From a bacterium (GTDB lineage: Bacteria; 4484-113; JAGGVC01), in the NCBI GenBank assembly GCA_021158185.1, contig JAGGVC010000134.1:1-22574 (forward strand): a stretch of DNA of 22,574 nt, in the 5' to 3' direction. Position numbers and translations under genes: made by a program. Shown one piece after another: positions 3,901-20,221 of this stretch. The notes under the pieces are model-generated. The model made no database searches, was not told the DNA's origin, and saw only the letters and a program-made list of their open reading frames with translations. Every line of letters begins with the position of its first letter. The first letter of the stretch is position 1.

Positions 3901-4540
3901 CGCCGCGGATCGAAAACTGTGCAGGTGCGAAAACGAGATTCGCGCGCTCGTAGCCGAAATCGGAAAGCCGCTCTGCAAGCTCGATGGTCGATATGCTTGT
4001 TCTGACGCCGAACCTTCCCGTATCCGACGCACCCGCGGCGCACAGCGCGAGCTTTGCATCTCTCACCGTTTCAGGATCGGGCAGCCGTCTGAAGATCGCA
4101 GCGGGCGTTGTGAATATCACGCATACATGTTCCCTGAGCATCAGGTCGAGTGCGAGCCGCCTTTGTGCGGTCGTTTCGATATCAGGGATTGCAAAATCGA
4201 ATATGTTTGAGGGCTCGAAATCGGGATAAAGGAGGAAATCATCGTCGCGCTCGTACTTATCCGTAAGAAGACGCCATGCCGTAATAACATGTGCGCGCGT
4301 ACTCTCGGCCTGCCTCCCGGATTCGCACAAAACGATCAGCGGGCGCGTTTTCGCGCGCGCGAACATATACGCGATAAGGAAATGTCGCGCGGATCCGCGC
4401 ACGTTTGCAGCCTGGAAAATACCCGCGCGCGTCTCCCGCGCCGCAAGCGTATCTTCAAAAAGGTTCCTCAGTCTGATAGCGAGACTATGCATCAGCCGTA
4501 ACATTACCTCACGCGTTTTTATTAAACAAGTATTTCGCAA
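926..4540 (-). CDS. mfd: Transcription-repair coupling factor Mfd
   Basis: The 1204-aa ORF has Walker A GDVGFGKT and a DEEQ box (LLVIDEEQRFGV), the superfamily-2 helicase core typical of Mfd/RecG. It also has an N-terminal UvrB-homology region and a C-terminal TRG-like region. The tracked start is TTG at 4540 with AAGGCGG upstream. Alternative ATG starts at MLRL/MHSL have poor SD spacing, so the start is uncertain. Stop is TGA at 926-928. Confidence 0.9.
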   Translation of the reverse strand: MRNTCLIKTREVMLRLMHSLAIRLRNLFEDTLAARETRAGIFQAANVRGSARHFLIAYMFARAKTRPLIVLCESGRQAESTRAHVITAWRLLTDKYERDDDFLLYPDFEPSNIFDFAIPDIETTAQRRLALDLMLREHVCVIFTTPAAIFRRLPDPETVRDAKLALCAAGASDTGRFGVRTSISTIELAERLSDFGYERANLVFAPAQFSIRGGLVDVFPVGAASPIRIDFFGDEIEEISRFNPETQRSFEGAGEAVILPARARAVHGEDAMRAADLVKTRLDEYVGEYGSRLPASVKKLSEVIEEDIERIRIGTDFNRAGFYSPLFSGDYTLLDYFPNGTSLLIHDEALVEGELRTYLRFWEERFLEWRKSALSITQLDDYYIAPDEKLYDYFRNHRLISGGDLSLILTNSFDFAHSEVPAADLRLGTPSSAKFRLGFLTATLSAMGEQANEVWITSQFADRLQEKLKEEGITGTAVNKAILPGGFSFPDAGHLITDAEIFGEIEDTVTKRPRRYEKGGIKAVDEIKIGDYVVHIDYGVGRFVALSDQEVGGIRRSYVEIEYEGKDKLYVPVDQLDRVRRYRFDGNAPKLNNLGRRTWKKIRRKIRKDSIKLALRLFKLYRKRADMSGMSYCDSEGWLDEFGAAFPYELTPDQREAWDAVREDMEASRPMERLICGDVGFGKTEIALRTAFLTCQNDRQVLVLCPTTILADQHYHTFRRRFAAFPFRVEMLSRFLSPRDQKAIVADFNAGKVDVLIGTHRIFSKDVKPKSPGLLVIDEEQRFGVKQKERLKMKFPGVDSLTLTATPIPRTLHMSLVGMRDVSLIETPPVDRKPVRTYVGEYDRQIARDAVLREIGRGGQIYFLHNRVEDIELFKAELEHLVPEAKITIAHGQMKEDALEEIMNTFAIGAFHILLATTIIENGLDIPNVNTLIVDKAENLGLAQMHQLRGRVGRSHVQAYAYFFHEPERGLTPDAQGRLHSIYNYAYLGSGYEIAQSDLRLRGAGNIFGTEQSGIAAHVGYDYYFEILHDSFEAVREGAYGLDDLDDFDEGALLDAFEEERAGCVVDVPIPAFIPPDYIEDSVLRLDLLRRIAGLNLSEIDDFRSELEDRFGKPPEAVENLLAVIAIKLMAESVGISSVEYMRHKNAFRFRFRSGRPSWVQKITLLDRKAELKENDLVDLGVQLDSEVAPKLMLFLERLEDLQE

Positions 4541-4627
4541 GCAGTCGTCCGCCTTGATCGTACAGCAACATCGCGTCTGCGTTGCGGTATCGGTATTGCG
4601 GGCACAAGGCGACTGCTTTCGGCTCAG

Positions 4628-4636
4628 TGCTATAAT
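4628..4636 (+). promoter_or_regulatory. Extended -10 promoter element (TGcTATAAT) for the DUF502 gene
   Basis: ggctcagTGcTATAAT at 4621-4636 lies about 95 nt upstream of ATG 4732. No good -35 is present. A near-identical 15-nt motif recurs upstream of glyA. Confidence 0.35.
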
Positions 4637-4731
4637 CCCGAATCCTGATGGGTTTTTGATCTTTCTCGATCATTTCCCAGATCATCCATCAGCTGATCGA
4701 ACATAAGCAGACATGGTTTCGAGGTGTGAAA

Positions 4732-5463
4732 ATGAAAGGCATATTAAAAAAGGTTACAACCTGGTTCATAAGCGGACTAATTACGATTCTGCCGCTCGCT
4801 CTCACGATCGGGCTTCTCGGATGGATATACACCAAAATAGTTTCGCTTTTCGGAAAGGACTCTGCGATAGGACGCATTCTCGTAAGGACAGCAGAAACTC
4901 ATAACCTTCCGTCCAGTCTGACGATCATATGCGTGTACCTGGCCATAATCGTTCTCATTATTCTTATAGGGGCGTTTGTCCATATTCGCGCGAGGAACCG
5001 CGTTTCCGAATGGATCAAGGGCCTGGTGAACCGCTTTCCTGTTATTAACAGCATCTACAATTCCGCAGAACAGGTAGTAGGCATTTTCGGTAAGACGCCC
5101 GGCGCTGAAGGACAAGGGGATGATCCCGCGCACGGAAGCAACATTGTACTTGTGCGGTTTGCAAACACGCTTATCCTGGGAATGCTGCCCTCGCAGGACG
5201 CTGTAGACATCGGCGGTGTGCCACACTACATGGTCTATTTCCCGTCGACCCCGGTGCCGATGAGCGGCTTCAACTACCTCGTTCCCGCGGACAGCGTCTT
5301 TATGACCGAGCTTAAGTTCGACGATCTCACAAAGGTGCTCGTATCGCTCGGAGCACTCGCGCCGCAGACACTCGGCGGAGCAATCGAACTCAAACCGGCA
5401 TTCAGCCCCGGCAACGCATCCGCCGACCCCGCCGCAATCGAACCCGATGGCGAACAACCGTAG
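4732..5463 (+). CDS. DUF502 (COG2928) family membrane protein
   Basis: ATG at 4732 with GAGG 7 nt upstream. The tracked ORF starts at an in-frame GTG at 4726. It has two N-terminal TM helices (FISGLITILPLALTIGLLGWIY; LAIIVLIILIGAF). Conserved DUF502-like blocks are VLVRFANTLILGMLPS and FPSTPVPMSGFNYLVP. It is transcribed divergently from mfd. Confidence 0.75.
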   Translation: MKGILKKVTTWFISGLITILPLALTIGLLGWIYTKIVSLFGKDSAIGRILVRTAETHNLPSSLTIICVYLAIIVLIILIGAFVHIRARNRVSEWIKGLVNRFPVINSIYNSAEQVVGIFGKTPGAEGQGDDPAHGSNIVLVRFANTLILGMLPSQDAVDIGGVPHYMVYFPSTPVPMSGFNYLVPADSVFMTELKFDDLTKVLVSLGALAPQTLGGAIELKPAFSPGNASADPAAIEPDGEQP

Positions 5464-5586
5464 GGCAGCAGGTTTCTTTCTCGCCATTCAATGAATAATG
5501 GATGAAGGCGAAAAGCGGTATAGGCACGTTCATCGCAAACCGCTGATCACTTCATGTAGCAGGCCACACGTATGCGCAGTCATTTC

Positions 5587-5602
5587 CGCGCGTATACGCG
5601 CG
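5587..5602. promoter_or_regulatory. Perfect 16-bp palindrome CGCGCGTATACGCGCG followed by direct repeats GCGCAAT x2
   Basis: The palindrome is read directly at 5587-5602. GCGCAAT occurs at 5601-5607 and again at 5618-5624, spanning an A7 run. It lies about 75 nt upstream of the -35 at 5677. This is a candidate regulator-binding site, not a terminator, because no T-run follows on either strand. Confidence 0.3.
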
Positions 5603-5676
5603 CAATCGCGAAAAAAACGCGCAATTTCAGCAGGAAGGTGAAACGAAAGAATTTTTAAGATTCCTGCTAAAAACAC

Positions 5677-5705
5677 TTGACAAAGCCAAACTCATAGGTT
5701 ATTAT
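5677..5705 (+). promoter_or_regulatory. Consensus sigma70 promoter TTGACA-17-TATTAT
   Basis: TTGACA at 5677-5682, an exact 17-nt spacer, then TATTAT at 5700-5705. It sits in an AT-rich intergenic stretch and is the only plausible driver of the 5.8-8.1 kb plus-strand cluster. Confidence 0.6.
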
Positions 5706-5725
5706 TGTTCTAGCTTACTAGAACA
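5706..5725. promoter_or_regulatory. Operator-like inverted repeat TGTTCTAG-n4-CTAGAACA overlapping the transcription start
   Basis: Perfect 8-bp arms at 5706-5713 and 5718-5725 with a 4-nt spacer, immediately 3' of the -10 hexamer. This placement is typical of a repressor operator. A GntR-family regulator is encoded in the downstream cluster. Confidence 0.4.
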
Positions 5726-5787
5726 CCAGTGTTTCTTTGAAATCCTTGTGGACTGGTAGCTGAGATCAGGGAAGGCTGTAAGTGAAA

Positions 5788-6003
5788 ATGGAATTTTTAA
5801 GTGTCAGGGGTCTTCTGAATAGGCTGTTTCTTATTCGAGCATCAAAGCCTAGCGATGAAGGAAAATCCCAAGCAGCGATTGGGACTTGTTCATTATCAGC
5901 CGGGATGGACGATTCAGGAAATGGCGATTCCGCAGGCAACAAGCTTTACGGAGCTGTTAGGGCAGGATCTGAGCATGAGTTGTTTGGTTTAGATGTTTTG
6001 TGA
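5788..6003 (+). CDS. Hypothetical small protein (71 aa) in the promoter-proximal leader
   Basis: ORF MEFLSVRGLLNRLFLIRASKPSDEGK... The tracked version starts at GTG 5782. SD is weak and there are no recognisable motifs. It is listed only because the cluster is compact and co-directional. Confidence 0.15.
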   Translation: MEFLSVRGLLNRLFLIRASKPSDEGKSQAAIGTCSLSAGMDDSGNGDSAGNKLYGAVRAGSEHELFGLDVL

Positions 6004-6041
6004 AATGACTCAGAAGTTTTGGTCATCGCACTGGAGGAAAA

Positions 6042-6224
6042 ATGCTTGCCAAAGTTTATGTTGTTCTTATTGGCGTATACTCGGTTCTGCTACTATCACG
6101 AGCCATCGAGGTTGCAGCTGGGCTAATTTACAGCCACGGCGTGACGCTTCAGAAGGCCGTGAGCTTTCTCGTAGAGTGTTACGAGCTTTCGATCGATTTC
6201 GGTGTGAAGCTGTGGTCGATCTGA
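6042..6224 (+). CDS. Hypothetical 60-aa single-pass membrane protein
   Basis: ATG 6042 is preceded by GGAGG (6033-6037). It has an N-terminal hydrophobic helix VYVVLIGVYSVLLLS. It is mutually exclusive with the R-rich tracked ORF 5993..6298, which looks like compositional noise. Confidence 0.3.
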   Translation: MLAKVYVVLIGVYSVLLLSRAIEVAAGLIYSHGVTLQKAVSFLVECYELSIDFGVKLWSI

Positions 6225-6294
6225 GATGCGGATGTCGGATGGATTATTCCGATGCAGGCGCTATTAAGGCTTATAAGAAGCGAAGGAGGTTGCC

Positions 6295-6453
6295 ATGAAA
6301 AGATGGGAATATGTGAGGATCCAGACGGATGCGCACAAAATCAAGAGTATCGATGACACCGTCGATCAACTTGGCAGAGACGGCTGGGAGCTTGCGGGCG
6401 TTATCTACACGCAGTCCTTTGTTCATATGTGGTTTAAGCGTCAGATGAGATAG
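6295..6453 (+). CDS. DUF4177-family small protein (52 aa), not in the ORF track (<60 aa)
   Basis: ATG 6295 with strong GAAGGAGG at 6280-6287. Translation is MKRWEYVRIQTDAHKIKSIDDTVDQLGRDGWELAGVIYTQSFVHMWFKRQMR. The MKxWEY...GxxGWEL motif and the ~50-aa size match DUF4177. It ends at TAG 6451-6453, 23 nt before the GntR start. Confidence 0.65.
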   Translation: MKRWEYVRIQTDAHKIKSIDDTVDQLGRDGWELAGVIYTQSFVHMWFKRQMR

Positions 6454-6476
6454 CGGAAGATCTGGGAGGATTTCAG

Positions 6477-6857
6477 ATGACTGAGTTTCGAATGAGCGTC
6501 GATTTCGAAAGCGAAGTGCCGATTTACGTGCAGGTGAAGAACCGAATCCGCATGTTGATCGACCAGGGCGAGCTTAAGCCGGGAACGCAGCTTCCCACGG
6601 TGCGTGATCTAGCCGTAGAGCTTGAGATAAACCCGAACACAGTGAGCCGGATCTACGCCGACCTCGAGCGCGAGGGCTACCTTTTCAGGCGTCGGGGAAT
6701 CGGCACGTTCGCGGTAGATCCGCGTAAAGTGGAAAAGAGTGAGCCGCCGGGGAAGGCACAGCTCGTGGAGACGCTCCGTCAGCTCCGTGCACTCGGCTAC
6801 AGCTCTCGCCAGATACTCGAAATGACTGCGGAGGTTTTGCGGGAGGTAAAGGTATGA
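6477..6857 (+). CDS. GntR-family transcriptional regulator, short YtrA-like subfamily (126 aa)
   Basis: N-terminal winged HTH of GntR type (LPTVRDLAVELEINPNTVSRIYADLEREGYLFRRRGIGTFAV). The short C-terminal region is typical of the YtrA subfamily. RBS GGGAGG is upstream of ATG 6477. Confidence 0.85.
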   Translation: MTEFRMSVDFESEVPIYVQVKNRIRMLIDQGELKPGTQLPTVRDLAVELEINPNTVSRIYADLEREGYLFRRRGIGTFAVDPRKVEKSEPPGKAQLVETLRQLRALGYSSRQILEMTAEVLREVKV

Positions 6858-6943
6858 TCGGTGCCTTGGCTTTCGTAGAATTTGCAGCGATGCATTTGTA
6901 CGAGGACGAGATGACATTGGCGTTTTCATTGCTGTTCTTGTAG
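6854..6943 (+). CDS. Candidate 29-aa hydrophobic micro-protein, start overlapping the GntR stop (ATGA)
   Basis: ATG 6854-6856 overlaps TGA 6855-6857 of the GntR gene. It encodes MIGALAFVEFAAMHLYEDEMTLAFSLLFL. This is plausible translational coupling, but the ORF is too short to be sure. Confidence 0.2.
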   Translation: MIGALAFVEFAAMHLYEDEMTLAFSLLFL

Positions 6944-7071
6944 AAGTGTTTACTGTTCTGATTGCAGTTGCAGCCAAGGCGGGACGTCTTTCGGACCGCA
7001 AGGGCTTGATAGGGAGTAAATCCCGATTGTTTAGTGTTTGTAGATACGGAAGAACTCAAAAGGAGAAGGAA

Positions 7072-8076
7072 ATGCCAGTTATGCCTATTGTTACAAGTGG
7101 AAGTCGTAGAATTGGTGCCGCGCAGCAGGAAGTCCATATGCACCCGTTTACTGTTTTGTGGGGTGTGGTGCCGAGCATAATCGCGGCAGTTTTCTTTGTT
7201 CTCGGCGTCATCAAGCTCGATGTTGGTGAATATGTCCTCGGTTTTACATACCTCGTAATTTTCCTTGTGTTTCTCGGCCTGGGGCTGATCATATTCAACT
7301 GCCTTAAGGTCGCGGATCAGTGGGACAGGGTGATTACTCTGCGCTATGGTAGGTTCAAGGCGGTTCAGCAGCCAGGTATTTTTTGGCTCACGCCGTTCGT
7401 GGACACGATTGCTAAATGGATCGATACGCGCGTGATGACAGCAGACCTGCTCGCCGAGGAAACGCTTACGAAGGATACCGTTCCGGTTGACGTGGATGCG
7501 GTTATGTTCTGGCTGGTGTACGACGCAAAGAAGGCAGCGCTTGAGGTTGAGAATTTCGAGAATGCGGTTACCTGGGCCGCCCAGACAGCATTGCGAGACC
7601 TGATCGGAAAGACCGAGCTTGCGGATCTTCTGGTGGGGCGCGAGGAGCTGGACGCAAAGCTCCAGGAGATTATCGACGAACGTACCGAGCCGTGGGGCGT
7701 AAGCGTGAGGAGCGTCGAGATCCGCGAGATCAAGATCCCTAAGGATCTACAGGATACTATGAGCCGTCAGGCGCAAGCTGAGCGCGAGAGGCAGGCTCGT
7801 GTGATCCTCGGCGAGAGTGAAAAACAGATTGCAGCTAGCTTTGCTGAGGCAGCCAAGGAGTACGTAAACAATCCGACAGCACTGCACCTTCGTGCGATGA
7901 ACATGCTCTTTGAAGGGTTAAAGGAAAAGGGCAGTCTTATGATCGTGCCTTCGAGCGCCATAGACAGCATGAACCTCGGTGGAATGGTGGGACTCGCTGC
8001 GGGCGGCGGAGTGCTGGAGCAGATCACGCAGCACCAAGGTGAAAAGACGGAAGGTAAGAGCGACAGCGTTGTATAG
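7072..8076 (+). CDS. SPFH/band-7 (stomatin/prohibitin/HflKC-like) membrane protein
   Basis: ATG 7072 with AAAGGAGAAGG immediately upstream. The tracked ORF begins at an in-frame GTG at 6946 with no RBS. It has two N-terminal TM helices followed by an SPFH domain (ITLRYGRFKAVQQPGIFWLTPFVDTI...VDVDAVMFWLV...) and a coiled-coil segment QAQAERERQARVILGESEKQIA. Confidence 0.8.
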   Translation: MPVMPIVTSGSRRIGAAQQEVHMHPFTVLWGVVPSIIAAVFFVLGVIKLDVGEYVLGFTYLVIFLVFLGLGLIIFNCLKVADQWDRVITLRYGRFKAVQQPGIFWLTPFVDTIAKWIDTRVMTADLLAEETLTKDTVPVDVDAVMFWLVYDAKKAALEVENFENAVTWAAQTALRDLIGKTELADLLVGREELDAKLQEIIDERTEPWGVSVRSVEIREIKIPKDLQDTMSRQAQAERERQARVILGESEKQIAASFAEAAKEYVNNPTALHLRAMNMLFEGLKEKGSLMIVPSSAIDSMNLGGMVGLAAGGGVLEQITQHQGEKTEGKSDSVV

Positions 8077-8253
8077 CCGGGCTGATCTTGAAAGAAATCG
8101 GCCCCAAATGGTAGATTCGGATCGCGGCTGATCAAGGCAAAATGACTTTGGTCAGCCGCGTGTGCATATCGAATCAGGTAGACGGCGCAAAAATCCTGTT
8201 CGACATAAAAGTTCTAAACAAAGAATGATGTTGTCGTGATATAAATATGTGGC

Positions 8254-10449
8254 ATGGAAGCACCTATCCTGGGGATCTCAGTCTGCCTTCAGTTTGCTGC
8301 AGCGTTCTTCGCTCTGCGGCTCACGAGAATTACGGGCAGGCGGGCTTCCTGGTACCTCATTTCCTCGGCAATTCTGCTGATGGCCGTAAGGCGAAGCATT
8401 ACATTGTACGCTGTCTTGACCAGCAATGATCCACGGCCTTTGGACATGCAAGCGGAGATAGTTGCCCTTCTCACCTCAGGTCTTTTACTCATAGGAGTCA
8501 TACTGATCGCCCCAATTTTCCGATCGTTCAGGCGCATTGAAGAATTGCAGGAATCCGAAAAGAGATTCAGGACGCTTTTCGAAACTTCTACAGAAGGAAT
8601 TCTTATTGCAGAAACCAAAACAAAGAAGTTTCTCTACTCAAATCCGGCGATATGCCGAATGCTTGGATATTCTGAATCCGAAATGAAGCAAATGGGCGTG
8701 GTCGATATTTTTTCTGGGAATGCAATTGAGTATGCAGTCTCCGAATTCGAGGCTCTGGAACGGAAAGAAAAAACCCATGTTACAGACCTTCGGTGTCTGA
8801 CTAAGGATGGCAGGATAATTATTTCTGATATGTCGGCTACGATCATTCCGGTTGATGGGAAGGAGTGCATTGTAGGCTTTTTTAGCGATGTAACAGAGCG
8901 GAAGAAGGCCGAGGAAGCGCTCAAGTGGAGCTGGGAGCGATATAGGCTCTTCATCAAGAATTTTCAGGGAATCGCGTACGAAGCGGATATCCTGACATTC
9001 AAACCAACCTTGTTTCATGGCAAAATAATGGATATCACTGGCCATTCAGCGGATGAGTTCCTGAATGACAAGATCACCTGGGTGGGGCTTATCCATCAGG
9101 ATGATCTGGCATCGGTGATGCAGGAGCGAAAGAAGCTTGTATTAACTCCGGACTATGTTGCAAATTCAGAATATCGAATCCGCCGCAAAGACGGGCAGAT
9201 CCGCTGGATTAACGACATTGCTGTTGTCGTCAGGTCGGGAACATCTGAAGCCACAAGAATCCAGGGCACGATTTTCGATATCACAGAGCGCAGGGAGCTT
9301 GAGAAAAAGCTGCTTCAATCACAGAAGCTTGAAGCGGTGGGTCTCCTCGCCGGCGGCGTGGCGCATGATTTCAACAACATTTTGACCGGAATTATGGGCT
9401 ATGCGGATATTCTTGCCGATGAACTGGGCATGGACAGCTCTCTCATCAGTGAAGCAGAAGAGATAAAAGGTGCAGCCATTCGTGCGGCAGATCTCACGAG
9501 CAGGCTTCTAGCATTTAGCCGCAAGCAGGTTATTCAGCCAATCAATATCAGATTGAACGAGTTGATTAATGATATATGTAAGCTCATCAGCAGGTTGATA
9601 GGCAGTAATATCGAGATGGTTTTTGTTCCCGGCAAGGATATCGATGAGATTCATGCCGATCCGGGTCAGGTTGAACAAGTCATGCTTAATCTCGCCGTGA
9701 ATGCCAGGGACGCGATGCCCAATGGCGGACGGTTTACAATAAAAACCGAAAGCGTTGTGCTGGATGATCGGTTTTGCATAGACCATCCGGGCTCAAAACC
9801 CGGCAAGTACGTACTGCTTACGGTTGCTGACACTGGAATCGGGATGGCGCAGGATATAATCGATCATATTTTCGAGCCCTTCTACACAACGAAAGGAATC
9901 GGCAGCGGCACCGGACTTGGGCTTGCAACCGTATATGGAATTATCAAGCAGCATGACGGCCTAATCTACGTAACCAGCGAAACAGGGAAAGGGACTCAAT
10001 TCGAGATGTATTTGCCGGCAGTTGAATCGGAAATCATAAGCAAGCCTGATGAATATGAAGATCATATTGAGGAAATCGGTGCGACGATTCTCCTGGCTGA
10101 TGACGAGGATATGGTACGCAAAACAACGGAGAGATTTCTCACAAATGCAGGATATACAGTTCTAACGGCATCGGATGGAGCTGAAGCGGTGCGCCTGTTC
10201 GAAGAGAATGCTTCATCGATCGACCTCGCCATCATCGATATGATAATGCCCGAATTGGGAGGCATTGAAGTTATCGAACGTATCAGAATGATTGAGCCCG
10301 GTATCAATGTAATCGTCTGCACGGGCTACGGCGGCGCTTCTCAGCCCGAAAAGCTGGCTGAAAAGCACGGGTTTACGCTCGTTGCCAAGCCATTCAGATT
10401 CAAAGAACTTCTTAGCACTGTTCGCAGGGCTCTTCAGAAAGACGAGTGA
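8254..10449 (+). CDS. Hybrid sensor histidine kinase / response regulator with multi-TM sensor and PAS domains
   Basis: The N-terminus has 3-4 TM helices. Two PAS-like regions follow (LFETSTEGILIAE...; YRLFIKNFQGIAYEAD...). HisKA H-box is AGGVAHDFNNILTGIMGYADIL. HATPase_c carries N, G1 and G2 boxes (NLAVNARDAMPNGG, DTGIGM, GTGLGLATV). A C-terminal receiver is ILLADDEDMV...DLAIIDMIMPELGG. The start ATG 8254 has no clear SD. Confidence 0.85.
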   Translation: MEAPILGISVCLQFAAAFFALRLTRITGRRASWYLISSAILLMAVRRSITLYAVLTSNDPRPLDMQAEIVALLTSGLLLIGVILIAPIFRSFRRIEELQESEKRFRTLFETSTEGILIAETKTKKFLYSNPAICRMLGYSESEMKQMGVVDIFSGNAIEYAVSEFEALERKEKTHVTDLRCLTKDGRIIISDMSATIIPVDGKECIVGFFSDVTERKKAEEALKWSWERYRLFIKNFQGIAYEADILTFKPTLFHGKIMDITGHSADEFLNDKITWVGLIHQDDLASVMQERKKLVLTPDYVANSEYRIRRKDGQIRWINDIAVVVRSGTSEATRIQGTIFDITERRELEKKLLQSQKLEAVGLLAGGVAHDFNNILTGIMGYADILADELGMDSSLISEAEEIKGAAIRAADLTSRLLAFSRKQVIQPINIRLNELINDICKLISRLIGSNIEMVFVPGKDIDEIHADPGQVEQVMLNLAVNARDAMPNGGRFTIKTESVVLDDRFCIDHPGSKPGKYVLLTVADTGIGMAQDIIDHIFEPFYTTKGIGSGTGLGLATVYGIIKQHDGLIYVTSETGKGTQFEMYLPAVESEIISKPDEYEDHIEEIGATILLADDEDMVRKTTERFLTNAGYTVLTASDGAEAVRLFEENASSIDLAIIDMIMPELGGIEVIERIRMIEPGINVIVCTGYGGASQPEKLAEKHGFTLVAKPFRFKELLSTVRRALQKDE

Positions 10450-11715: not shown

Positions 11716-11787
11716 TGGGCGTTACTGGATTCGAACCAGTGACTTCATACGTGTGAAGCATGCGCTCTGCCACTGAGCTAAACGCCC
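11716..11787 (-). tRNA. tRNA-Val (anticodon CAC)
   Basis: Reverse complement folds as a cloverleaf: acceptor GGGCGTT/AACGCCC, D-arm GCTC-AGTGGCA-GAGC, anticodon arm CATGC-TTCACAC-GTATG (U33, CAC, A37), T-arm ACTGG-TTCGAAT-CCAGT, discriminator A. No CCA is encoded, and the 3' end is followed by a T6 run. The tracked ORF 11630..11947(-) overlapping it is spurious. Confidence 0.85.
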
Positions 11788-20127: not shown

Positions 20128-20221
20128 GCGGCGGTTGATGGGGTCCGGTGGCCCCCGCGGTCTTCAAAACCGTTGGCGCGGGAGATCCCCGCGCGGGAGG
20201 TTCGACTCCTCCCTCCGCCGT
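20128..20221 (+). tRNA. selC: Candidate selenocysteine tRNA (tRNA-Sec, anticodon UCA), selC-like
   Basis: 6-bp D-stem GGGGTC/GGCCCC with 4-nt loop CGGT (20140-20155). Anticodon arm GCGGT-CUUCAAA-ACCGT has U33, UCA and A37 (20157-20173). A long variable arm forms a 7-bp stem (20176-20194). T-arm is GGAGG-TTCGACT-CCTCC (20196-20212). The anticodon loop, D-loop and GGTTCGACTCC T-arm are identical to E. coli selC as recalled. The acceptor is imperfect (GCGGCGG/CCGCCGT, 7 bp including G-U) and the acceptor-to-D linker is 4 nt, not 2. TATAAT at 20116-20121 places +1 at the predicted 5' end. Confidence 0.5.

Follow-up and report, generated by a model that had tools for sequence, protein, structure and literature searches.

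A putative self-regulated operon combining a DUF4177-like small protein, a YtrA-type GntR regulator and a stomatin-type SPFH protein in uncultured, Planctomycetes-like bacteria

SPFH/stomatin proteins are present in nearly all organisms but, to our knowledge, little is understood of how their synthesis is controlled in bacteria. Pairing with NfeD is typical of prokaryotic stomatin/SPFH operons; in the Pyrococcus PH1511-PH1510, Escherichia coli qmcA-ybbJ and Bacillus subtilis floA-nfeD operons, an SPFH domain with an N-terminal hydrophobic hairpin is accompanied by a small membrane partner that is encoded adjacently or fused. The other described systems to which we compare our locus are the autoregulated operons of the YtrA subfamily of GntR regulators, represented by the B. 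subtilis ytr operon, Staphylococcus aureus PmtR, Mycobacterium Rv1152 and Sulfolobus YtrA_Sa. Here we analyse positions 5726 to 8076 of a 22,574-nucleotide stretch of DNA from a bacterium of GTDB lineage 4484-113; JAGGVC01 (contig JAGGVC010000134.1, forward strand), hereafter called the window. The region encodes a DUF4177-like protein of 52 aa, a short GntR regulator of 126 aa and an SPFH protein of 334 aa. We propose, with a probability of roughly 0.6, that it forms a single, autoregulated transcription unit, which a lineage of uncultured, Planctomycetes-like bacteria has conserved. Its components, a YtrA-type autoregulated operon and a stomatin-type scaffold, are of known kinds; the literature searched yielded no account of their combination with a DUF4177-like protein, and a full-text search turned up no paper on an SPFH operon under GntR control or on a link between DUF4177 and SPFH proteins.

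The presumed autorepressor, encoded at 6477-6857 on the + strand behind a GGGAGG at 6464-6469, has the build of the YtrA-subfamily regulators, about 125 aa with a winged helix and a C-terminal part of about 45 aa, and like them it is encoded within its own presumed operon. PF00392 matched residues 17-78 with 63.2 bits (cut-off 27), which places the protein in the winged helix-turn-helix family, and residues 6-120 aligned with solved short GntR proteins of 125-134 aa (3neu, 4r1h, 4ham, 3ic7 and 3by6) that we take to be YtrA-type. Its length also falls within the ~120-130 aa of this type, in which a reduced C-terminal part of ~45-50 aa replaces the ligand-binding domain. It is not an orthologue of PmtR or Rv1152, since the corresponding NCBIfam models scored far under their cut-offs (62 against 200 and 59 against 170, respectively). 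A total of 107 relatives were found, most of them 60-78% identical, and all five single-nucleotide polymorphisms (SNPs) in the gene within the species are synonymous.

The locus departs from the YtrA subfamily in its cargo and gene order. Most YtrA regulons encode an ABC transporter, which is typical and not obligatory (PMC4494728), whereas the cargo here is a stomatin-type SPFH protein and a DUF4177-like protein; an ABC transporter followed only a distant GntR homologue, at locus L099, which is 49% identical over the winged helix only. The cargo of the Sulfolobus YtrA regulator is reported to consist of membrane proteins, as here (PMC6746942). Unlike in the YtrA-subfamily operons, the regulator is not encoded by the first gene, and eight relatives carry a second GntR paralogue. 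This shorter protein (90-99 aa, ~38-49% identical to the main regulator) is encoded between the DUF4177-like and main GntR genes (L006 4656-4949; L007 4720-4992; L010 6421-6720; L011 ~6197-6466; L014 893-1183; L016 699-989; also L017 and L019). The paralogue is absent from the window, L008, L009, L012, L015 and L098.

Evidence that the three genes belong together came from related loci. DUF4177-like, YtrA-type GntR and stomatin-type SPFH genes were present in equal order and orientation at twelve independent loci (L006-L012, L015-L017, L019 and L098), with identities to the window proteins of 48-61%, 62-74% and 66-85%, respectively. When loci were retrieved through the GntR protein (L006-L009 and L014-L016), the DUF4177-like gene was directly upstream in all seven and the SPFH gene was downstream wherever the contig reaches, that of L014 ending at the GntR gene. 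When they were retrieved through the DUF4177-like protein at an identity of at least 49% among GTDB genomes and metagenomes, all seven further loci had the three genes with the order kept; one of these, L013, is the same place as L008. Two of the relatives' assemblies are labelled Planctomycetales and the others 'bacterium'. Five metagenomic contigs of the species match the window at an identity of 99.6% or more, with no insertions or deletions, and are uninformative on conservation; the SNPs among them nevertheless show a pattern of purifying selection in the DUF4177-like, GntR and SPFH genes, all of which have gene-like codon usage. The association of the three genes weakens with distance: at L097 a GntR gene encoding a protein 46% identical to ours precedes an SPFH gene without a DUF4177-like gene, and at L099 the GntR gene precedes the ABC transporter.

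A conserved promoter region points to a common control of these genes. In a sigma-70 scan, the sole strong promoter-like site upstream of the cluster was TTGACA-17 nt-TATTAT at 5677-5705 (+ strand), which matches 11 of 12 consensus positions, with the caveat that the rules of this lineage may differ. One nucleotide past the -10 hexamer begins a candidate GntR operator (5707-5732, no strand assigned), which spans the predicted transcription start. It consists of a perfect 18-bp palindrome, GTTCTAG-CTTA-CTAGAAC (5707-5724), with 14 nt between GT and AC, followed by an extra ACCAGTGT half-site. The palindrome occurs once in the window, and no match was found in 100 shuffles (0 expected by chance). 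Variants of the form GT.CTAG-N4-CTAG.AC precede the first operon gene in L006, L007, L008, L010, L011 and L012, where extra ACCAGT/ACTAGT half-sites also trail the palindrome, and L009 has a related ACTGGTAC motif at the same upstream position. The -35 and -10 hexamers are in equal register to the operator in L007, L008, L010, L011 and L012, and similarly placed in L006 and L009. In a comparative study, the sites of YtrA-type GntR proteins were long palindromes with conserved GT and AC far from the centre (PMC4494728). The 5707-5724 sequence appears to be of this kind: like the YtrA-subfamily sites, it is a single long palindrome with outer GT and AC that overlaps the promoter. The presence at eight loci of a TTGACA plus mostly TATTAT promoter adjoining the palindrome is consistent with one operon that its own GntR protein represses. 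A promoter and terminator scan found no significant site that would split the genes in the interior of the cluster, where spacing is compact (23 nt from the DUF4177-like to the GntR gene, -4 nt from the latter to a 29-aa open reading frame (ORF) discussed below).

The last gene of the unit, at 7060-8076 (+ strand) including its Shine-Dalgarno sequence, encodes a stomatin-type SPFH/Band-7 protein of 334 aa from the ATG at 7072, with AAGGAG (7060-7065) 6 nt before the start. PF01145 matched with 118 bits, above the Pfam threshold. The closest solved relatives, stomatin 9oh9 (6e-42), the PH1511 stomatin 3bk6 and QmcA 8z5g, had E values from 6e-42 to 1e-33. HflC and HflK matched far more weakly (2e-10 to 8e-8) and their NCBIfam models were far under cut-off, which identifies the protein as stomatin-type. 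As in the known prokaryotic operons, the SPFH domain is preceded by two hydrophobic segments of transmembrane (TM) length, residues 29-47 and 60-78 (KD19 2.48 and 2.63), which would form the hairpin. Within the species, the gene has two non-synonymous and four synonymous SNPs. In contrast to the stomatin-NfeD operons, the partners here are a one-helix N-terminal module (fused in the relatives and broken in the window), a transcription factor and a DUF4177-like protein; no NfeD partner was found in the gene tables or among the precomputed Pfam matches of neighbouring genes, in the window's species and in the relatives examined. At 8123-8160 (+ strand), 47 nt past the SPFH stop codon, a strong 14-bp hairpin (-31.2 kcal/mol, z = -5.4, none of 200 shuffles as stable) is a candidate for the end of the transcript. 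The terminator scan missed it because it lacks a T run; should it act as a terminator, termination in this lineage may not require a U tract.

An earlier note on this stretch had taken these genes to suggest a single module, in which a short YtrA-like GntR gene lies 23 nt after a DUF4177 gene, a two-TM SPFH/band-7 protein with a strong ribosome-binding site starts at 7072, and the nearest promoter lies about 590 nt upstream of the DUF4177 gene. The gap, the regulator type, the SPFH assignment and the promoter were all borne out. The module itself is supported by synteny in all relatives retrieved, by the conserved promoter and palindrome and by the lack of an internal promoter or terminator, after removal of the 29-aa ORF and of the ORFs in the leader, which the note had counted as members.

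The 29-aa ORF (6854-6943, + strand) does start within the GntR stop codon, its ATG overlapping the TGA as ATGA, as had been noted. However, it is the stump of a broken SPFH module and not a separate micro-gene, because its codons 1-19 match the N-terminus of a module fused to SPFH in the relatives and a single G restores this module. Ten relatives have an SPFH frame that reaches 65-110 codons further upstream than the counterpart of 7072, and this extension encodes a short acidic-ended N-terminus, one TM helix and a basic linker. A three-frame comparison of the window with eight loci located the corresponding, disrupted module at 6854-7071 (+ strand), with codons 1-19 in frame 2, where the 29-aa ORF opens with MIGALAFVEFAAMHLYEDE, and with the helix and the linker in frame 1 (6910-7071), which reads DDIGVFIAVLVEVFTVLIAVAAKAGR... 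and continues to 7071. The two frames are separated by a 1-nt deletion at ~6910/6911 (GAGGAT to GAGAT). Inserting one G after 6910 restored a module that can be aligned to its in-frame counterparts in the ten relatives and has a TM segment of KD19 2.77. The 29-aa product, by comparison, reaches a maximum KD19 of 0.91, with no membrane-spanning stretch, and its last ten residues are out-of-frame readthrough of the TM helix. In none of the ten relatives do these codons form a separate ORF with its own stop; they run into SPFH. All five same-species contigs, which derive from two samples, share the deletion, and no insertion or deletion distinguishes them at this place. An attractive stop-start-coupled ORF of 29 codons was thus exposed as a stump solely by comparing relatives, which is a caution for micro-ORF hunting.

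The break bears on which forms of the SPFH protein are made. In nine of nine relatives examined, the ATG that corresponds to 7072 has an AAGGAG 6 nt ahead of it, despite a linker that is variable in sequence and length. Within the relatives' long frame (n = 9), the AAGGAG and ATG read as a conserved K-E-x-x-M in the protein. Since this internal Shine-Dalgarno sequence and ATG are conserved within the long frame, the relatives may make both a long form, with the extra N-terminal TM helix, and a short form. The window's species, as judged from the frames, can make only the short form because the 1-nt deletion broke the upstream module, and the SPFH core is predicted to be translated from the ATG at 7072. 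The SPFH gene of L098 naturally lacks the N-terminal module. At L009 (5479-6530) the SPFH gene lies in fragments that do not share a frame, and the 271-aa product of the gene call comes from translating off frame; the gene has either become a pseudogene or been misassembled in this contig.

The smallest member of the proposed unit is encoded at 6295-6453 (+ strand), with AGGAGG at 6284-6289, 5 nt before the ATG. The earlier note had called this 52-aa ORF an unannotated DUF4177 gene. The ORF and its ribosome-binding site stand, and gene callers find the gene on every same-species contig, but it is annotated in public data (NCBI hypothetical protein J7K50_09940) and its match to PF13783 stays below the gathering threshold (17.6 bits against a cut-off of 25, E = 0.0045, residues 12-40 only). 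Four of the five operon-type DUF4177-like proteins gave sub-threshold PF13783 matches, the best with E = 7e-4. The nearest NCBIfam model was the Sp36 family, under its cut-off (29 against 50), and a word-based homologue search returned the protein itself only. With phmmer, 44 relatives were recovered at E<=1e-3 from among 1.84 billion representatives. PF13783 matched 26 of the 35 small relatives at E<=0.01, and it exceeded the cut-off in the tandem-repeat relatives P0111, P0132, P0117 and P0141 (53, 65, 37 and 36 bits). Judged by these matches, the protein joins DUF4177 only via its relatives, with which it shares the size of the family, ~50-65 aa, and the WEY...LG..GWEL...FKR signature.

The AlphaFold model of the 52-aa protein (pLDDT 97) is a beta-alpha-beta-beta unit. 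Foldseek found no match to it in the PDB at E<=0.001, and the top matches, among them the KCTD5 C-terminal domain, a KH domain and dodecin, were small beta-alpha-beta-beta domains of a generic kind. A hydropathy scan showed no hydrophobic segment, consistent with a small cytoplasmic protein, and the gene is free of SNPs within the species. Since its gene always adjoins the regulator gene, the DUF4177-like protein most likely acts together with the regulator. P0111, P0117, P0132, P0141 and P0150 are larger proteins with 3-5 tandem DUF4177-type domains and N-termini resembling signal peptides, which suggests that the DUF4177-type domain works outside the cytoplasm too.

Between the operator and the DUF4177-like gene lies a leader of ~570 nt (5725-6294, + strand) to which we could assign no function. 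It is, as the earlier note had it, rich in A and T compared with its neighbours (GC content 0.385-0.47 against 0.50-0.61 in the flanking genes), and it is the feature on which two other accounts of the region turn. One holds that the unit is split: the promoter at 5677 would drive the leader transcript only, as a small RNA or the mRNA of a 60-aa ORF, and the three genes would have an unrecognised promoter of their own shortly before 6295. The distance from the operator to the DUF4177-like start, 588 nt in the window against 43-100 nt in L006, L008, L010 and L012, is indeed anomalous, the base composition of the leader differs, and a weak terminator-like hairpin lies at 5866-5884. However, the leader contains no promoter-like site (5706-6294) and no second operator copy near 6295, and terminator-like sites are no more frequent than in shuffled sequence (3 observed, 4.2 expected). 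Furthermore, in L007 and L011 the promoter and operator are also ~650 nt from the DUF4177-like gene, the gap being filled by the gene of a 176-179-aa two-TM protein, so this promoter tolerates cargo inserted behind it. We regard a split into two units as unlikely. A cis-regulatory RNA (riboswitch, attenuator or Rho-dependent control region) adding a second control layer would fit the length of the leader and its place between the promoter and the first conserved gene, and small upstream ORFs could serve attenuation. Here too the evidence mostly points the other way. The earlier note had recognised no riboswitch, and Rfam likewise left the leader without a match at the gathering threshold (whole window) or at E<=10 (5450-7100), the best scores at E<=10 being 13.7-16.8 bits, far under threshold. 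Folding of 5711-6300 was ordinary (z = -1.15; 15 of 100 shuffles fold equally well). A regulatory RNA tied to a conserved operon would be expected to be conserved too, yet no homologous leader was found in the relatives: neither the leader DNA, compared with 14 related loci and the rest of the window, nor its ORFs, compared with all six-frame fragments of those loci (phmmer, E<=1), gave a meaningful match. A regulatory RNA is therefore the less probable of the two, and we give it scant weight.

Two further alternatives concern the small ORFs. Several genuine small proteins might act with SPFH, namely the products of the 29-aa ORF, whose start is coupled to the GntR stop, and of the 60-aa, single-TM leader ORF. 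For the former speak the ATGA overlap, a plausible coupled start, and a codon-usage score of 0.274, but such a score is expected of a recently broken coding sequence, and the origin of the ORF in the fused module and its lack of a membrane-spanning stretch have been described above. The 60-aa ORF (6042-6224, + strand, GGAGG at 6033-6037) has a stronger case: its codon-usage score is 0.305, against 0.289 +/- 0.108 in real genes and -0.353 in off-frames, it was picked by gene callers on all four full-length same-species contigs, and it encodes one TM-like segment (residues 1-19), so that of the two products whose TM topology the earlier note had raised, only this one has such a segment. Relatives also carry assorted small TM ORFs around SPFH (L006, 55 aa; L007, 90 and 109 aa; L016, 77 and 68 aa; L098, 70, 79 and 59 aa). 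On the other side, a search of 5.8 billion clusters found no relative of it outside the species, and within the species it has three non-synonymous SNPs to one synonymous, against 0:5 in GntR and 2:4 in SPFH; the changes include A26P, which puts a proline into its predicted helix. With coding evidence thus mixed, the odds lean somewhat against the 60-aa ORF being a real gene, and that both ORFs are functional partners of SPFH seems to us improbable. A programmed -1 ribosomal frameshift could still yield some long-form SPFH, since the two frames jointly encode a complete module and the needed shift is -1. We consider this barely credible: the sequence GAG GAC GAG ATG AC lacks a slippery heptamer of the form X XXY YYZ, no relative needs a frameshift at the module, and the single-base deletion GAGGAT to GAGAT accounts for the break fully.

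All four within-species SNPs between the promoter and the GntR gene sit in 6085-6147, a 63-nt part of the 60-aa ORF, and the rest of the leader has none. The second leader ORF, of 71 aa (ATG, 5788-6003, + strand) and nested in a 73-aa GTG ORF, looks non-coding because its codon score is 0.00 and its third-position GC content (GC3) 0.37. The earlier note's leader ORFs are thus present, the 60-aa one with its GGAGG, but conserved in no relative, and neither the leader nor the 60-aa ORF appears to have a counterpart outside the species. We also considered the leader as a decayed copy of the accessory two-TM gene (152-180 aa) found in L007 and L011, and rejected this: a five-protein profile found nothing in the leader in any frame of the window, its best hit (E = 1.7) lying elsewhere, and tblastn with the L014 and L016 versions of the accessory gene gave noise only.

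We return to the single autoregulated unit, for which we propose the following course of events. A transcript from the 5677-5705 promoter would carry the leader, the DUF4177-like gene, the GntR gene, the decayed remnant of the one-helix module and the stomatin-type SPFH gene. A GntR dimer would bind the palindrome overlapping the -10/+1 edge and block RNA polymerase, so that the operon represses itself; from the position of the site, GntR probably occupies the transcription start. Some cue would then release the repressor. Because the C-terminal domain of YtrA-type regulators is too small for a small-molecule pocket, the cue is probably sensed at the membrane, and its effect would be that more SPFH scaffold is made. 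The 1-nt deletion in the module would have left the 29-aa ORF as debris, with the SPFH core made from the ATG at 7072. A function in membrane stress or membrane microdomains is suggested by family membership. The operon is a testable case, with a single repressor, a single clear candidate operator, a single scaffold and a very small, conserved partner.

Several points weigh against this reading. The leader has no explanation, a 5' untranslated region of ~583 nt is unusual, and a promoter invisible to the sigma-70 scan could hide within it. The 60-aa ORF has gene-like codon usage and may be a real extra gene. A role for the DUF4177-like protein is proposed from the adjacency of its gene, and Foldseek gave no informative structural match. 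DNA binding, repression and the inducing signal are, like that role, proposals, and the two SPFH isoforms that the relatives may make are suggested by sequence.

Beyond the near relatives, the association of DUF4177 with the other genes is rare. The earlier note had raised the co-occurrence of DUF4177, short GntR and SPFH genes across genomes, which holds among near relatives and not in the wider DUF4177 family. Among distant DUF4177 genes (<=50% identity; 77 loci in 45 clusters at ~80% identity), tblastn found no GntR gene nearby and an SPFH gene was adjacent in only two related clusters of the 45, which leaves 43 of 45 without adjacent GntR or SPFH. These two high-GC metagenomic clusters (L045/L095/L096 and L087/L088) have the order SPFH, Arc-like, DUF4177, DUF3887 and VanY; in L088 (2826-5241) the SPFH protein has 288 aa, the Arc-like protein 64 aa and the DUF4177 protein, above the Pfam cut-off, 67 aa. 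Like the window operon, the cluster is a tight same-strand set of SPFH, small putative DNA-binding protein and DUF4177 genes, the DUF4177 gene adjoining that of the DNA-binding protein and its start overlapping the preceding stop. Unlike in the window, SPFH comes first and is only 24-25% identical, the organisms are unrelated, and the DNA-binding protein is ribbon-helix-helix-like, with weak similarity to Arc (E = 0.0014), and not a GntR protein. The cluster is a second, unrelated case of the combination, a lead and not a statistical result. That DUF4177 proteins are dedicated partners connecting small DNA-binding regulators to SPFH/stomatin scaffolds, in a module that arose or spread in at least two unrelated lineages, is a speculative idea to which we assign a low probability. 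If true, the assembly state of SPFH in the membrane would feed back on transcription via a 50-residue adaptor, which would give a first function for DUF4177 and a previously unknown way of regulating SPFH proteins.

The relatives' accessory two-TM proteins (152-180 aa) form a family with a conserved C-terminal part, whose genes, in some cases duplicated, precede the DUF4177-like gene, separate the two GntR genes or follow SPFH (L007 3991-4530; L011 5471-6001; L010 6749-7291 and 7299-7826; L008 6597-7136; L014 206-664; L016 1-501; L017 ~4002-5046). The members scanned matched no Pfam or NCBIfam model, and the family is absent from the window. PADLOC assigned none of the DUF4177-like, GntR and SPFH proteins, the two leader ORFs and two accessory proteins of relatives to a defence-system family, and PHROGs, searched for phage origin, gave a generic SPFH-type match for the SPFH protein only. 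Downstream of the operon lies a gene for a PAS/histidine-kinase/receiver hybrid (8254-10449), also found at varying distance in L006 (7557 onward) and L008 (9797 onward), which could be coincidence or a loose association. The window further contains an ordinary tRNA (11716-11787, - strand, 69.9 bits) and a selenocysteine tRNA (20130-20219, + strand, RF01852, 70.7 bits), so the organism probably uses selenoproteins.

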